Below, piece after piece: positions 23,703 through 58,610 of a stretch of 64,000 nt of DNA. Within the stretch, counting starts at the first letter, position 1; each line of letters opens with the position of its first letter. The stretch spans positions 64,001-128,000 of the forward strand of contig CAVWVI010000004.1 in the NCBI GenBank assembly GCA_963758495.1, read 5' to 3'. The notes beneath the pieces are model-generated. The model searched no databases, was not told the origin of the DNA, and saw nothing but the letters and a program-made list of their open reading frames with translations. The translations under genes were made by a program, and so were the position numbers. Source of the stretch: Oligoflexia bacterium. Lineage in GTDB: Bacteria; Bdellovibrionota; UBA1018.

Positions 23703-24055
23703 GGTTCATTTCGCGACAAGTTCAGCGAGTGAAAGGCCGTGGTCCCATTGCTTTGTAATCAGATCCTATAGAAGGGAGCTATGGCAACGGCTGCCTCCTC
23801 GCTCTACTGTAGGACCTGTGCAATTAAAGGGAGAACCAATTCAACGTCTCAGTACCCCAATCCTTCTCAAAGGAAACCAAACGAGGCTCTCCTTCCCTAT
23901 TGAGGATCCCGATCCCGATCCCGATTTATTGCAAAGGCGGTTCTTGAAATGTCTCACCCGCAGCGAAGCCTAAGCCCCGCCATGACTGCTCTCGAAGTGC
24001 GCAGAGTTGAGCTTGATTGCAGTCTGGGCCACACTGAGTCTTGGCTTGTCTGGAG

Positions 24056-52292: not shown

Positions 52293-53012
52293 TTACTTTA
52301 ATGCCGTATAGATTCGATGTACATCATCATGATCATCAATGGCATTTAAAAATTCAGAAACTTCTTTTTTCTGCTCTTCTGGGACTTCTACCAAATTCTT
52401 AGCAATATAATTCATTTCAGAAAGAGTTACGATCCAACCATTTTTAACTAAATACTTACTGACCGAATCTAAATCGGTCGTATCGCAGAAAAATCGCCCT
52501 CCCGCATGACCGGCAGGAATTTCAAAAGCTTCCAAAGTTTCTACATTTTGAGCACCGGCTTCAATCGCCACTGTCTCAAGATCTTGTAATGAAGGGTGAG
52601 TTGCTTCAACTACCCCTAATCGATCAAACATCCAAGTGACACTGCCTATGGCTCCCAACATCCCTTTTCGAAAAAGAACTCGGATATCTGCTGCCGTGCG
52701 ATTCTTATTTTCTGTCAGGCACTCGACCACAACAGGGATTTTATGGGGAGCAAATCCTTCATAAGTAACCAGCTCAAATTGGATTGGGTCGTCTAAAAGA
52801 CCAGCACCCTTTTTAATCGCTCGTTCTATATTGTCCCGCGGAACGGAAGCCTTCCTTGCAGCCTCCACAGCCGCCCTTAATCGAGCATTATTATCAGGAT
52901 TTGGATCCCCGACTTTTGCAGCAACTAAGATTTCCTTCACTAATTTACTGATCAAAGCCCCTCGTTTTGAGGAGTTCTCAATTCTTCCTGCATGTTTCCA
53001 TTGTGCGCCCAT
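52293..53012 (-). CDS. yebC: YebC/PmpR family protein
   Basis: MGAQWK, NARLR, NIERAIKKG, YEGFAP, TENKNRT, DDHDDV. Confidence 0.9.
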   Translation of the reverse strand: MGAQWKHAGRIENSSKRGALISKLVKEILVAAKVGDPNPDNNARLRAAVEAARKASVPRDNIERAIKKGAGLLDDPIQFELVTYEGFAPHKIPVVVECLTENKNRTAADIRVLFRKGMLGAIGSVTWMFDRLGVVEATHPSLQDLETVAIEAGAQNVETLEAFEIPAGHAGGRFFCDTTDLDSVSKYLVKNGWIVTLSEMNYIAKNLVEVPEEQKKEVSEFLNAIDDHDDVHRIYTALK

Positions 53013-53085
53013 AGGGTTCTTTTCCCATATCCTGAGGCCGCGCTCAACGGAGAACTTTAAGGAGTATATTAAAAGTACCAATCCA

Positions 53086-53270
53086 GTGTGTGCTTTCAAA
53101 AAGCCCCGGCAGAGTTATGAGATGAGATCAAGGTTACCACCAGACGCACTCCGAAACACGGAAAGGAGCTAGAATCGTATCGGGTGAGGCACGCGCGACA
53201 GACGAATCGTGTATGAAAACGGGAGCGAATGCAGGCTGTCAAGGGAAGGCGCTTCGCTTGAGTGTCAGGA
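53086..53270 (-). repeat. Left copy of the long inverted repeat flanking the HNH gene
   Basis: Reverse complement of 54642-54856. 53180-53220 matches 54692-54732 perfectly (41 bp); similarity weakens beyond 53237. Confidence 0.95.
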
Positions 53271-53527
53271 GAATAATTTGGCAAACTGAGAACAACTTCT
53301 TGACAAGGTATTTTTATTTTTTCTGAATTTTTTTCAATACTACTGACTTCATTTTAAATACTTGCTACGAGTGCAGTAGCAACTAGCAGAAGAGTCAATG
53401 ACTAAGAGCTGATCCCTAGTACCACTTGTTCATTCTAGGGCCTGTATTGGCTCTCTAAACACAAAAAATCGACCTCAGAAAACTATGTTAAGGTGTTTCC
53501 CAGTCTCAAGCAATAGGAGAAAAGAGA

Positions 53528-54562
53528 ATGGAAATTTTAAGAAAGTTACCTGACCAAGTACTACTCGATCAAACCTCTGCACTGGTCAAAGTTGAACGAG
53601 AAACAACAACTCAAATTTTACATCATTTACAAGAACTGGAAAGAAGACGGTTATTTGCAGTTCTTGGATTTTCCAGTTTATTTTCTTATTGCGTTGAGAG
53701 TTTAGGTTATTCGGAGTCGAGTGCTCAAAGACGCATATCGAGTATGCGGTTGCTGAAAAGTTTGGAGCCAGAAGTTTCCAAAGAAGTAGAAATCAAAATA
53801 CAAGAAGGCAGTCTCTCCCTATCCGTTTTGGCTCAAGCACAATCTTTCTTTCAAGAGGAGGCTAAGGCAAATCATGCTCTTAGTCCTTTAGAAAAAAAGG
53901 AGGTGCTCGGCATGCTTGACGGGAAGTCCGCACGAGCGGCCACGCAAGAATTGAAAAATCTATCCTCTCAAGAAGTCCCTCCTATTCGAGAATATGCTCG
54001 ATCAGCCAGTCATGACAGAACAGAGATCCACCTTGTAGTGAATCAACAAACAATGGAGACACTGGAAAAAATTAAAGGACTTCTAGCTCATTCGCATCCA
54101 AATATTGGATGGGGTGATCTAATTGGAAAAATTTCAGAAATTGCATGGCAGAAGCTTGACCCGAGCCGAGAACCACTCAGCAGGAAAAAAAATACCACAC
54201 CACTTCAGGAGCCATCCGCAGAAGGCACTACGGAATCTTCCTTAATGACAAAGAGTGACATACACCTGGTAGAGCAAACAGCAGTGCCGACATCGGCAGT
54301 AAAAAGAGAGAGAATTTCAACAGCACTCAAACGAGACGTCTGGAGAAAAAGCGAAGGCAAATGTACCTATGTCGATTCTGTGACTGGCAAGGCTTGCAAC
54401 TCAAGACGGTTTCTACAGATTGAGCATCTTCGTCCGGTAGCACTGGGTGGAAAAAATGAACTTTCAAACTGCACCCTTCGCTGCTCCGTTCATAATCAAC
54501 TCTCCGCCATTCAAATTTTCAGTCAGAAGAAAATGGAAAAATATGTACCCAGTTTGAGGTAG
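53528..54562 (+). CDS. HNH endonuclease with N-terminal helical (DUF222-like) region
   Basis: N-terminal 'ERETTTQILHHLQELERRRLF..LGFSSLF.Y....LGYSE.SAQRRI'; C-terminal CTY...C...LQIEHLRPVALGG...N...RCSVHN. RBS GGAG. Confidence 0.88.
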   Translation: MEILRKLPDQVLLDQTSALVKVERETTTQILHHLQELERRRLFAVLGFSSLFSYCVESLGYSESSAQRRISSMRLLKSLEPEVSKEVEIKIQEGSLSLSVLAQAQSFFQEEAKANHALSPLEKKEVLGMLDGKSARAATQELKNLSSQEVPPIREYARSASHDRTEIHLVVNQQTMETLEKIKGLLAHSHPNIGWGDLIGKISEIAWQKLDPSREPLSRKKNTTPLQEPSAEGTTESSLMTKSDIHLVEQTAVPTSAVKRERISTALKRDVWRKSEGKCTYVDSVTGKACNSRRFLQIEHLRPVALGGKNELSNCTLRCSVHNQLSAIQIFSQKKMEKYVPSLR

Positions 54563-54641
54563 CTGAGAAACCATTAAGAATGAATAACGGGTATCGTATT
54601 TGGAGTTTGAAGATGTCTCAACATATCAAATAAACCTCCGT

Positions 54642-54856
54642 TCCTTCACTTTAATCAAAGCCCCCTCCCTCATTAGCCTGCACCCGATCCTGTTTTCATA
54701 CACGATTCGTCTGTCGCGCGTGCCTCACCCGACACGAGTCTAGCACCTTCCCGTGTCTCGGAGTGCGTAGAGTAGCAATCTTGATCTCGGCGGTGCCCCG
54801 ACTTATCATTGATCTCACCTCATAACTCCGACGGGGCTTTTGAAAAAACACACACT
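54642..54856 (+). repeat. Right copy of the inverted repeat, with a 28-bp insertion (20 nt + duplicated TTGATCTC)
   Basis: Aligns to the reverse complement of the left copy. TTGATCTC occurs at both 54781 and 54809, around GGCGGTGCCCCGACTTATCA. Confidence 0.95.
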
Positions 54857-54913
54857 TTACAAAAAAGGTTACACTTTAAATTTCAACCTTTGAATCGCAT
54901 TAATATACTGTTT

Positions 54914-55792
54914 TTACATCCACTGGTAGGAGTAAGTTTCCTGCTTGGGCCAATCTTCAGCCGTTGCTAAGTCCTCACAGAGGGGTCTAATCATATCTTT
55001 AATGTGGCGGGGATAAAAGTCGGTCCTATCCAATCCAGAATGACTAGCCATGATGCTCCAAGGAAATGTTTCCTGAGAAACAAAAGGTCTATCGGGGCAG
55101 TTTTTGTCAAGGTACTCATCTGGTCCACCTAAAATATGCCCTATTTCATGAGTAATGACTTCGCAGTACCTAGGATTGATTTTACCATCTATTTTTGCGC
55201 CATTGTGAACATACCAAACATGAGAAGAGAAGGGGTAAAGATCTGTAGGACTACCATCATTCAGAATAATAGCTTCATCAAAATCGTCTAACCACATGGT
55301 ACTCAGGTATCTTCGCAACGTAAGATCGAGATGAATCCCTGATCTTTCAAAATATTCTTTTACTGTCGGAATACACTCAGAAACTACGCCGATCATTTCA
55401 GCTTCTCGTTGTACAGAACTGTTACCTGCCGCAACACCTAAATGCAGTCGGATATTTGCAAGGCCATCGGAAGCGGGACTCACACGATAGTGGACATCTC
55501 CTCCTTGTGGTCTACCGCCAATCTTGCAAACCGAAAGTGACTCATAATCAACCTTAACCACTCCAGAGCGATTCCCACTAGATACACACCTTCGAACTAA
55601 ATCTTGATTAGCTGTTCTATGCCCTTGAATTTTAGCAATCTCATCAGGAGTGAGAGGTCTTGTTTGATCAGAGACAGGAGGGGGTGTATACGGAGGAATC
55701 ATTCTTTGTCCTCCACAGAAACAGAAGAGAAAAGGCAAAGAGACTAAAGTGAATGCTCTTTGTAAACCGATGAGCTTCATAGCGGGCTCCAT
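54914..55792 (-). CDS. Secreted/lipoprotein zinc metalloprotease (HExxHxxGxxD)
   Basis: HEIGHILGGPDEY plus downstream SIM Met-turn; hydrophobic N-terminus with Cys. Overlaps the upstream gene's stop. Confidence 0.8.
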   Translation of the reverse strand: MEPAMKLIGLQRAFTLVSLPFLFCFCGGQRMIPPYTPPPVSDQTRPLTPDEIAKIQGHRTANQDLVRRCVSSGNRSGVVKVDYESLSVCKIGGRPQGGDVHYRVSPASDGLANIRLHLGVAAGNSSVQREAEMIGVVSECIPTVKEYFERSGIHLDLTLRRYLSTMWLDDFDEAIILNDGSPTDLYPFSSHVWYVHNGAKIDGKINPRYCEVITHEIGHILGGPDEYLDKNCPDRPFVSQETFPWSIMASHSGLDRTDFYPRHIKDMIRPLCEDLATAEDWPKQETYSYQWM

Positions 55793-57864
55793 GCTTTATT
55801 AGTAGGGTCGCAACATCTATTTTCTGTCTTGCTTTTCTTGCCTTCGATCTTGCATTCATCCGTTCTAAATGTCTCAACATCGCCATTTCTAAAATAGAGA
55901 TGTCCAATGATATAAAAATTCCAGTTATTATTTCCAGCCGGATACATATGAAGGAGGAGTTGGCATTGATTGCCTGAGACAATGTCGTTCATCACACTAC
56001 TCAAATCAATTTCTGCAATATTAGTCGTCCAATCTTCCCATTTTTTTCCGTGATCCTCATGGAGTCCCCACTGCCCAAGGTAGTTTCTATCTGACTTTCT
56101 TACGATCTCGATATCCAGCATAGAATTGTGGTCAAGTTCTTGGTTGGTTGTGTGAAACTCTAACTGAACTTTGACTAGATTTTTGTCGTCAATCAACTCC
56201 TCTCGCGTTTTTTCTCTAGGGAGTTTTCCCTGTGGCCACCCAAGATGAAGAGCAGTACAGTCTTTTGGGTTATCGAAGCAAGCTTGTGCTTTTTCATCGA
56301 TTTGTCTGATGATGGCATCGGTCTGACGTTTGTATTCAGAGATTTCAGACTTAGCCACTTTACCCAGCTCAAATTTGTAAGCGCTTATATTTTCCATAAT
56401 CGATTCACACATCTGTGATTTAGCCCAAGCCCGATCACTCGCTTCAGCAAGCTGGAATAACGCTCGTCTTTGTTTTTCTAAAGTAGGCGTCAGAATTGGC
56501 ATGTCTGCCACAACGCTATAAGGGAGTGCGGTCAGTGAAATCAATGAAGGAGATTGATTACTTTGAACATGGATTGCAAGTGCATTTGCATACGAGAGAT
56601 TTGCTCCTAAATCCTCATGATCTGGCAAAACTCCAAGTCCACCTTTTTTAAAAGTTTGTGACTGAACTCTGGATTTGGATTTAATCTCATCCAAAGTTGA
56701 CTTGATAGCGGCGCTGGCACTCCAAGTCAGTCCTGTTGCTGTGAGTTTTGAGTTGAAATCTGATTTTTGTGAAGATGAGCTGGTCTCGATTTTCAGAACA
56801 TGCCAGAACTCACCTCCTGTCGTACGACCTGCGATGAACGAATCACCGCAGCGTCTATAAAACTCCATGGGACTTTGCGCTAATAAATCCTTGCCTGTTT
56901 GGGTGAGTCGATATTGATTCATCAACTCACTTTCGTTCGTAATTCGTGCGTAAATCACAACATAGAGGCTATTTGAGTTCTTTTTAGATTCGTTAAAGTA
57001 ATGAGTGGTCGTGTCTACCCCTACACCGAAAAAACCAAAGGAAGCTTGTGCGTCGATCCCCAGTGAGGACCTCAGTTCTGAAGAATCTTTGGCAATGGAT
57101 ATCTTTCGATACAATACTTGCCCGTGAGGCAATCTGACTCCGCCTTCTGCGAAAGGATCGTTTTGTCCTATTGAATGAAGATTCGCTACTTCAACACACT
57201 CAGAACCTGCAGCTCCGCTTACGGAGTTGTAGCCTCTACCTAGAGTGTGGGGAGAACCTTCTTCTATGGGTAATAGGATTCTACCTCCCACCATGGATTG
57301 TCCTCGGTGCTCTGATTCTCCTTTCTGCGAATGCTTCTCTACAATTCGCAATTCCCAAACTTGATTAGGATGGGTTTCAGGACCATAGCAAGTCCATTGT
57401 TGAACTCGGGTCCCGTTCGAAGCGATGGATGAGATGTCAGCATCCAAGCATTTTCCAGAATGCAGGGCCTTGATGTGAAATCCTCCCCCTTTCGCTGGAA
57501 GTAAATTCCAAAGTTGATTGAATTGTTTATCGCCTCGTGCTTCCCAAATATGAGCTACTGATCCATTGTCTTGGGATTTGCGCGCAATATCTAGGGCTTT
57601 ACCACTGCTTTTAGTTATAATTTGAAAGAAGCCATTTGGACGGACTACTAACTTCCAAAGCTGATGAGCTGATCCATTTCCATGGATGCAATCCCAAAGA
57701 TGAACCTTTCCGCCATTGATCTGCGTTTCTGAACGCTCTACATCTAAGCATCGCCCAGGGGCACTTTTGGATACAATCTGATATTCTAATGCCTCATTTT
57801 GGGTAGCTTGCGCAGAGGTTTGCATCGATAAAAAAACCAACAAACTCAAAAAAGAGTGAATCAT
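55777..57864 (-). CDS. Secreted ricin-B lectin + MACPF-like pore-forming domain protein
   Basis: Signal peptide; three QxW ricin repeats (HQLW, NQLW, NQVW); LGRGYN and FYRRCGDSFIAGRTTGG resemble MACPF signatures. Start uncertain. Confidence 0.7.
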   Translation of the reverse strand: MIHSFLSLLVFLSMQTSAQATQNEALEYQIVSKSAPGRCLDVERSETQINGGKVHLWDCIHGNGSAHQLWKLVVRPNGFFQIITKSSGKALDIARKSQDNGSVAHIWEARGDKQFNQLWNLLPAKGGGFHIKALHSGKCLDADISSIASNGTRVQQWTCYGPETHPNQVWELRIVEKHSQKGESEHRGQSMVGGRILLPIEEGSPHTLGRGYNSVSGAAGSECVEVANLHSIGQNDPFAEGGVRLPHGQVLYRKISIAKDSSELRSSLGIDAQASFGFFGVGVDTTTHYFNESKKNSNSLYVVIYARITNESELMNQYRLTQTGKDLLAQSPMEFYRRCGDSFIAGRTTGGEFWHVLKIETSSSSQKSDFNSKLTATGLTWSASAAIKSTLDEIKSKSRVQSQTFKKGGLGVLPDHEDLGANLSYANALAIHVQSNQSPSLISLTALPYSVVADMPILTPTLEKQRRALFQLAEASDRAWAKSQMCESIMENISAYKFELGKVAKSEISEYKRQTDAIIRQIDEKAQACFDNPKDCTALHLGWPQGKLPREKTREELIDDKNLVKVQLEFHTTNQELDHNSMLDIEIVRKSDRNYLGQWGLHEDHGKKWEDWTTNIAEIDLSSVMNDIVSGNQCQLLLHMYPAGNNNWNFYIIGHLYFRNGDVETFRTDECKIEGKKSKTENRCCDPTNKAWSPL

Positions 57865-58053
57865 GACAATAGGAATTGATTTATATAAATTTTTCACCAC
57901 AGAAACACCTACCCATTTAAACTGAAGTAATTGTTGCGTAGTCTGATAATCAGCCACTACAAAGGGTTTTAGGGTATGTGACGCATGATGTAAATAGTGA
58001 TTTTACATTGCTAATATTAATTTTAGAATCTGTTACTGGTTAAGAAAACTTAA

Positions 58054-58098
58054 TTGATCTCGTCTCATAACTCCGCCGGGGCTTTTTAAAAGCACACT
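58054..58098 (+). repeat. Third, partial copy (terminal ~45-bp module) of the HNH-flanking repeat
   Basis: TTGATCTCGTCTCATAACTCCGCCGGGGCTTTTTAAAAGCACACT versus the left-copy reverse complement TTGATCTCATCTCATAACTCTGCCGGGGCTTTTTGAAAGCACACACT. Confidence 0.92.
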
Positions 58099-58211
58099 CC
58101 ACACCATTGAATCTTTTTTCATGCGTCGAAAGTGTGCTCATCAGCTGACTGATGGTACATATTTTCGGAAAGATAACCGCGGCCATGTTGTTGATGGTAG
58201 GATCGACATTT

Positions 58212-58526
58212 ATGAAAGAGCGAAAAAGAAAAAGCCAACCAGATAATATTGAAAAGTACTGGGAAGAATCTGCTCGCTTTTACGAAAGTGATGCAAGCCT
58301 TAAAGTATTAGAACAAGGAGTTCCCCTTTCTGCTGTTGAAAAGAGAAAACTTCTCGGACCAGGAAAAAAGAAACTCATTTCCGTTTGATTGCCGGAAGAT
58401 GACCTGGAAGCCTTAAGAACCATTGCCAAACGCCATGAACGCTCTTACCAGCAGCTTTTTATTTTAGCCGTAGAACATTTTTTGGACGAATACCATCGAA
58501 GTGGAATTTCTAAAAAACGCTATTAA
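58212..58526 (+). pseudogene. CopG/BrnA-like RHH antitoxin interrupted by an in-frame TGA
   Basis: KKLISV*LPEDDLEALRTIAKRHERSYQQLF reads through TGA 58386-58388; the family consensus is ISxRL...YQ.L. Confidence 0.75.
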
Positions 58527-58610
58527 TTTGCGTCTTGCACATCACACTTGTGATTGGAATATATTCTATTTTTACGGACAACTTTACAACAAAGAACTTT
58601 AAGGAGAACT

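Follow-up and report, generated by a model that had tools for sequence, protein, structure and literature searches.

What is an HNH nuclease gene doing between two long inverted repeats with no transposase gene beside it? The question is raised by a locus in a 64,000-nt stretch of DNA (hereafter, the window) from Oligoflexia bacterium GCA_963758495.1, contig CAVWVI010000004.1; the same genome is called G000 below and its contigs are labelled C1, C3 and C4. We propose that the locus is an ageing copy of a transposase-free selfish HNH nuclease element, which would spread itself by nicking and by the copying activity of host repair; to this reading we give about an even chance. The features of the locus are collected in Table 1, where X denotes the ~120-nt core of the arms, which is the upstream end module of the lineage to which the window element belongs.

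Table 1 The HNH element, its parts and related sequences in the window
Feature	Position	Strand	Remarks
Solo X copy	23906..24016	-	No HNH gene nearby; ~80 nt outward, a tip like that of the C1 IS4-like element
yebC/TACO1 gene	52293..53012	-	Pfam; neighbour only, outside the element
Putative 4-bp target duplication	left 53066..53069, right 54903-54906		Flanks symmetrical about the left copy
Decayed left IS4-like tip	53070..53083	+	3-nt start, 3-nt insert, then 8 nt common with the sister's right tip
Left inverted-repeat arm	53085..53299	+	Upstream end module of the HNH unit; last base directly before the TTGAC box
X core, ~120 nt	53125..53246	+	Also at 20 other places in G000 and at homolog loci in four other organisms
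TTGAC box, conserved in the family	53300..53304	+	228 nt ahead of the start codon
Extended -10-like box	53486..53491	+	186 nt past TTGAC; one of three preferred spacings
DUF222-like/HNH nuclease gene	53528..54562	+	344 aa; only ORF between the arms
Right inverted-repeat arm	54609..54856	-	Upstream module, inverted; begins 47 nt past the stop codon
Right-arm X core	54665-54787	-	Contains the perfect core 54692-54732
Outer right end	54857..54902	-	Finishes in an IS4-subgroup-like tip, 54891-54902; tip kept by the broken C3 sister
Left-end fragment of the same element	57980..58197	-	~45 nt of arm and 110 nt common with the left flank of the C3 sister

The inverted copies that the earlier note had placed around 53086-~53270 and ~54642-54856 are real, as confirmed by alignment and blastn (E 1e-34 for the arm pair). 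Between 53124-53259 and 54653-54788, 113 of 136 nt are identical, and a second, outer pair (53094-53136 and 54804-54846) shares 84% identity over 43 nt. By local alignment the arm match continues inward to 53299 and 54609, the right end continues outward to 54902, and the left arm has a 28-nt deletion relative to the right arm, located between two short direct repeats. The 41-bp perfect core, also described earlier, lies at 53180-53220 and 54692-54732; a run this long within the block has a P of ~0.002 by shuffling, i.e. its placement is unlikely if mismatches fell at random. By inspection of the six-frame output, no consistently conserved reading frame was seen inside X. Neither the repeat nor the protein had a match in plasmid or phage collections, one X pattern had none in viral contigs, and blastn found the exact repeat in 0 of 40 genomes of relatives.

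As the same note had stated, the arms enclose one intact HNH gene and no transposase: 53528-54562 is the sole ORF and its HNH and zinc residues are intact. The deduced protein has a helical ParB/KorB-like domain (22-150), a ribbon-helix-helix-like part (165-212), a disordered linker and a zinc-HNH domain (260-335). Pfam returns a weak HNH match and no DUF222 match on it. A protein search retrieved 118 relatives, labelled, where a label was given, Bdellovibrionota or Oligoflexia. Among the 110 that were aligned, H300 is present in all and N314 in 109, and the three zinc cysteines are nearly invariant; C279, C290, H300, N314, C319, H322 and N323 are conserved and all present in the window protein. 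Compared with the sister copy on C3, the window gene shows a dS of 0.138 and a dN of 0.017 over 130 codons, therefore the protein is under purifying selection. The two arms differ from each other by 12-19 positions per 120 nt, which is about this synonymous rate, and are drifting near neutrally.

The structure model of the window protein (pLDDT 90) has its helical domain similar to the DNA-binding domains of ParB/KorB (Z 5.7-6.3), its middle part to the ribbon-helix-helix of TraM (Z 5.0) and its HNH domain to a McrA-like fold (Z 8.0, rmsd 2.3, 67 aligned residues), all of these Z values being middling; Foldseek found no match to the model at E <= 0.001. Homodimer prediction scored 0.79 (best control 0.00; 69% contact agreement between runs; pLDDT at least 75), a mark attained by 20 of 30 solved pairs and by 1 of 23 single chains, with the predicted interface formed by helix 9-40 and the antiparallel strand 165-171. 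The protein is thus predicted to be a dimer that combines ParB/KorB-like and ribbon-helix-helix-like DNA-binding parts with two tethered HNH domains. Binding of the repeat by such a protein is plausible.

The earlier note had also considered that the nuclease might be guided by the repeat. In such a case the repeat would give rise to a structured RNA acting as guide or partner of the enzyme, as known from IscB/HEARO. The likeness to those systems is confined to the HNH domain: the NCBIfam IscB match is weak (E 1.7e-4; 20.9 bits against a cut-off of 175) and covers the HNH part only, as do the structural neighbours that include the HNH domains of IscB and Cas9. Conservation of the 41-bp core above chance would suit an RNA; however, the repeat matches no Rfam family at the gathering score, its single-strand fold has z values of -1.19 and -1.76, and the consensus fold has 0 pairs on the 21 X copies and likewise on both strands of 17 copies. 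The repeat is absent from most homologs, and the window system differs from IscB/HEARO in that it has neither a RuvC-like part in the protein model nor a structured RNA, its score being far under the family cut-off. Since no RNA structure was found on either strand, guidance by repeat RNA is unsupported, and we consider it very improbable.

The family to which the window protein belongs is, as judged by sequence, multi-copy in Bdellovibrionota and distant kin of DUF222/REP13E12. It is present in 27 of 41 relatives, with 0 to 72 matches per genome, and in 47 of the 121 genomes searched, these being the genomes at least 97% complete plus G000 itself. Paralogs cluster by genome in quick trees, many copies carry internal stops and the neighbours are not fixed. 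What the copies share lies upstream. Among the 45 closest paralog pairs listed, 43 have no common DNA beyond +35 nt past the stop codon, and most share 200-350 nt ahead of the gene. The upstream modules are lineage-specific, have a sharp left boundary and each end in TTGAC. Of 47 homolog leaders, 26 have this box at a distance of 170-260 nt ahead of the gene, compared with 175 of 1859 control ORFs, and an extended -10-like box (TGnTAT) was found near the start in 86 of 168 compared with 14 of 168. The distance from TTGAC to the -10-like box falls into three classes about 10 nt apart (166-169 nt in 26, 175-179 in 14 and 185-188 in 11 of 57 loci, many of which come from the same genomes and are not independent). 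In the window, the -10-like box is the likely promoter of the gene; a standard sigma-70 scan missed it. The copied unit comprises the sharply bounded upstream module, the TTGAC box, a leader of fixed length and the ORF, with its end near the stop codon.

In G244, eleven diverged paralogs (L279-L290) have in common an upstream module of 70 nt that begins sharply on the left and has two direct 6-nt boxes ahead of TTGAC; several of the genes are followed by microsatellites.

Two 1590-bp HNH units of G000, at C1:198998-200587 and C1:255246-253657 (L054 and L055), are 99.3% identical and have sharp ends, without IS tips and with unequal flanking repeats (8 and 5 nt). Their genes differ at 0 synonymous and 4 non-synonymous sites; of the copying events of the family in G000, the one behind this pair is the latest. 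The C3 sister of the window copy is broken, its 5' piece being fused to the right tip while its 3' piece lies 11 kb away; the left-end fragment in the window is joined to the 80 nt that precede this 3' piece. Another HNH element, at C1:323241-328996 (L063) and bounded by the second end family Y (see below), is interrupted, according to the ORFs read, by an IS200/IS605 TnpA gene, a group II intron reverse transcriptase gene and a TnpB remnant.

Whether the repeat is tied to the HNH gene, as had been supposed, was answered in part. The X profile matches 21 places in G000 and 0 in the reversed genome, most of the 21 being seeds picked from both HNH-near and HNH-free places, and 8 of the 21 are less than 1 kb from a family gene, compared with an expectation of 1.4%. 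The other 13 are more than 1 kb from any family gene and occur as empty doublets, beside a PIN toxin-antitoxin pair, a Fic gene or an IS4-like (DDE) transposase gene, or as solo copies. A repeat found at many loci with no enrichment next to HNH genes, combined with HNH homologs that lack flanking copies, had been named as the finding that would speak against a link; many loci do lack the gene, yet the enrichment is there. It extends to four other organisms, in which X sits directly upstream of family genes: in 2 of the 4 closest metagenome homologs (L039 and L040, whose genes were found by protein search alone), in 2 of 2 copies in G011 and in 4 of 5 in G037, while the L038 homolog, 70% identical, has no X. 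With a sequence-only X model and strict filters, the sole non-seed match in 115 other genomes was upstream of a family gene. In quick trees a single clade of X-bearing genes is rejected (p-AU 2.8e-6), therefore X has been swapped or often lost. The second end family, Y, has 8 matches, 3 of them non-seed, and each has a family gene no more than 400 nt away. If split genes are counted once and four pieces with the HNH domain only are excluded, G000 has 13 family loci, of which 5 lie between inverted arms and 10 are accompanied by X or Y on one side or both.

The part of the earlier claim that did not stand is the generality of the pair. Outside G000, a flanking inverted match was found at 6 of 161 homolog loci with full flanks (3/82 and 3/79) and at 0 of 100 mismatched controls; four of the six are shorter than 50 nt, one is a generic repeat and only that of L040 is long (252 nt, 92%). 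The 161 exclude loci with short flanks, among them L029 and L042, which have inverted arms. Being so rare elsewhere, the mirrored arm cannot be a requirement for spread. The rarity is not explained by inverted repeats lost in the assembly of fragmented genomes, since in single-contig genomes only 1 of 41 loci has a flanking inverted repeat. In all seven HNH elements tested, the best match of the right arm is the left arm of the same element or of its sister; mirrored arms therefore arose more than once, each from the element's own upstream module. The inverted repeat is the upstream module X of the lineage plus an optional mirrored copy past the stop codon, and it is not the defining feature that it had seemed. 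Long mirrored arms are a habit of G000: inverted arms of 192 nt enclose a two-gene defence-like pair at C4:714429-717061 and arms of 55 nt a nucleotidyltransferase-HEPN-like pair at C3:229880-231097 (both labels from sequence reading), and 57-nt arms enclose the genes of a PIN toxin-antitoxin pair at C1:113889-115127.

This habit, by which several unrelated genes of G000 lie between long inverted pairs, is compatible with the module being nothing other than the operator/promoter of a nuclease useful to the host, in defence or repair, in which case host rearrangement would make the copies and the mirrored arm would be an incidental scar. Purifying selection on the protein and near-neutral drift of the arms speak for this view, and regulatory constraint would also leave conservation upstream and none downstream. 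We nevertheless regard this explanation as quite unlikely, given the patchy presence and genome-specific bursts of the family, the many copies with internal stops and no fixed neighbours, the precise recent 1590-bp duplicate and the independent origin of the mirror arms.

Under the selfish-nuclease reading that we favour, the dimer would bind the upstream end module, X in this lineage, and repress its own promoter across the fixed, helically phased spacing of 167, 177 or 187 nt. Once expressed, the protein would nick DNA, and host repair would copy the unit from its fixed upstream end through the gene, stopping anywhere past it, so that a new copy is inserted. Fold-back during copying may occasionally add the mirrored module, and the IS4-like tips may be a later addition, by means of which this sub-lineage could once have been moved by a DDE transposase. 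We regard the unit boundaries, the multiplicity, the selection and the ancestry of the arms as shown, and we infer binding, nicking and copying; a ragged 3' end could also be mimicked by loss of unselected 3' DNA. The location of 13 of the 21 X copies far from family genes counts against the model, as do the scatter of X over more than one clade and the divergence of the arms at about the synonymous rate. More tentatively, and with some doubt, the scheme may extend to DUF222-like HNH genes at large, which would then be a class of mobile elements with an HNH nickase, a helically phased upstream end, one-ended copying and fold-back arms that spread as gene-less doublets and capture cargo; such cargo would include toxins, Fic genes and insertion sequences.

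A further difficulty for self-spreading is posed by the outermost ends. The right-tip 12-mer is identical at 10/12 and 9/12 positions to the two ends of E. coli IS4, and three other copies of the tip in G000 match these ends at 10-11/12 positions, the comparison being based on the E. coli element alone. Compared with the tips at C3:276673, C1:315315 and C3:556964, the decayed left tip is interrupted and has lost part of its sequence. At the termini, a 10-nt inverted match (53063-53072 and 54900-54909) has a chance of 0.006, and no duplication longer than 4 bp was found in register. Another element, at C1:532941-535279 (L058), bears X, has a gene for an IS4-like transposase with one internal stop and shows 230-nt arms that are 99% identical and a perfect 10-bp duplication, which is typical of DDE transposition; DDE transposition can therefore move X-containing DNA in G000. 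Its tip is like those of 1775-bp transposase relatives in G242, which lack X and have only 12-nt ends. In G274, a relative of the same transposase is enclosed by inverted arms of 301 nt, in which the starts of four-helix-bundle genes are found. X as the normal end of this C1 transposase family was ruled out, as it is found at 0 of 8 loci of the relatives.

The HNH gene may accordingly be a passenger in a non-autonomous, IS4-ended cassette that is moved in trans by a DDE transposase, X being internal cassette DNA. The E. coli-like tips, the right tip retained in the broken sister, the occurrence of X inside L058 and the X doublets around unrelated cargo all suit a passenger, and known IS4 elements make duplications of ~10 bp and in some cases carry passengers (PMC2266710). 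This alternative is strongest for the window copy in particular; as an account of the locus we nevertheless consider it unlikely. No intact transposase with this tip was found among the 7 DDE loci of the 92% complete G000, and the tip pattern gave only 2 stray matches, with no cognate transposase, in 400 other genomes. The C1 transposase relatives do not carry X, and the window copy has a duplication of only 4 bp, even though an old copy could have lost a longer one. Elements B1/B2, C, D, L040 and L029 have neither IS tips nor a constant duplication, and the family multiplies in genomes without any inverted repeats.

Mobile insertion cassettes and MITEs of the IS4 type (MIC231; PMC2266710 and PMC6542083) resemble the window element in having IS4-like tips around a gene that does not encode a transposase, and G000 also has empty doublets and other cargo. 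They differ in arm length (10-40 nt, compared with 215-290 nt in the window) and in duplication (~10 bp, compared with 4 bp), and the HNH cargo gene multiplies alone elsewhere without such ends.

RAYT-REP/REPIN systems have an HUH (Y1) enzyme and short palindromic hairpin REPs in hundreds of copies. The window element shares with them a nuclease gene between inverted repeats and gene-less doublets elsewhere in the genome; however, its enzyme is an HNH and not an HUH nuclease, and its repeat is 120-250 nt long, has no consensus hairpin and is present in only 21 copies. The passages searched of PMC3733652, on RAYT, make no mention of HNH.

The closest counterpart is REP13E12 of Mycobacterium tuberculosis (Gordon et al. 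1999, as cited in PMC10589994), repeats without defined function that are gene-conversion hotspots according to PMC13061034. The resemblance lies in a dispersed, multi-copy, single-gene unit that has no transposase and encodes a helical N-terminal domain and a C-terminal zinc HNH. HNH is matched by 100 of the 110 aligned family members and DUF222 by 11, in the latter case over the N-terminal part (best E 6e-9); with one of these 11, the family profile can be aligned over its whole length. Unlike these, the window protein itself has no DUF222 match, the host is of the Bdellovibrionota type and the unit has a fixed TTGAC/-10 leader and, in the window copy, long inverted arms with IS4-like tips. 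Membership of the window family in the REP13E12/DUF222-HNH kind is likely, with the DUF222 match itself seen in some relatives only. Mycobacterial DUF222-HNH members are under DNA-damage (LexA) control.

The earlier note had spoken of an undescribed selfish or mobile element. The element is indeed dispersed, multi-copy and selfish-looking, with no transposase inside, but "undescribed" does not hold for the protein family, which is kin of DUF222/REP13E12, nor for the outermost ends, which look like ordinary IS4 ends. Any novelty would lie in the mechanism only: the literature searched, seen in part, gave no account of how DUF222-HNH genes move or of the family in Bdellovibrionota, and in those papers the multiplication of REP13E12/DUF222-HNH genes is unexplained, a question for which G000 offers well-defined ends. 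Side by side, G000 has intact, split, internally deleted and gene-less forms of two end families, together with the 99.3% identical pair, so that both the ends (X, Y and the TTGAC box) and the enzyme are defined for testing. Should movement prove to require the HNH active site, the chemistry of transposition would be new, in a family that 47 of the 121 genomes searched in the phylum contain; should it not, the element would be a passenger cassette of the ordinary sort and its long repeat a local curiosity.

A link to the neighbouring yebC, which had also been suggested, did not hold. The HNH gene is absent from all 27 other yebC loci, of which 25 have 900 nt or more of upstream sequence, and yebC as a conserved target is thereby ruled out. 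The window copy is therefore a lineage-specific insertion, and its adjacency to yebC is incidental.

On the other side of the element, the 3' end of an M6-like metallopeptidase gene (window 54912-55200) is duplicated at C1:383094-383382 with 96.5% identity, and this duplication ceases within a few bases of the right tip of the element. Further on, the product of window 55777-57957 (726 aa) looks secreted and has ricin-B lectin domains and a central region without family assignment; 58100-58527 holds a broken small toxin-antitoxin-like pair, BrnT/BrnA-like by eye and with internal stops, the start of which is common to the left flank of the C3 sister element. Elsewhere in G000, at C3:402036-405433, a DDE transposase gene that is IS1380-like by eye has been duplicated in tandem, the two 1.7-kb copies being perfect.
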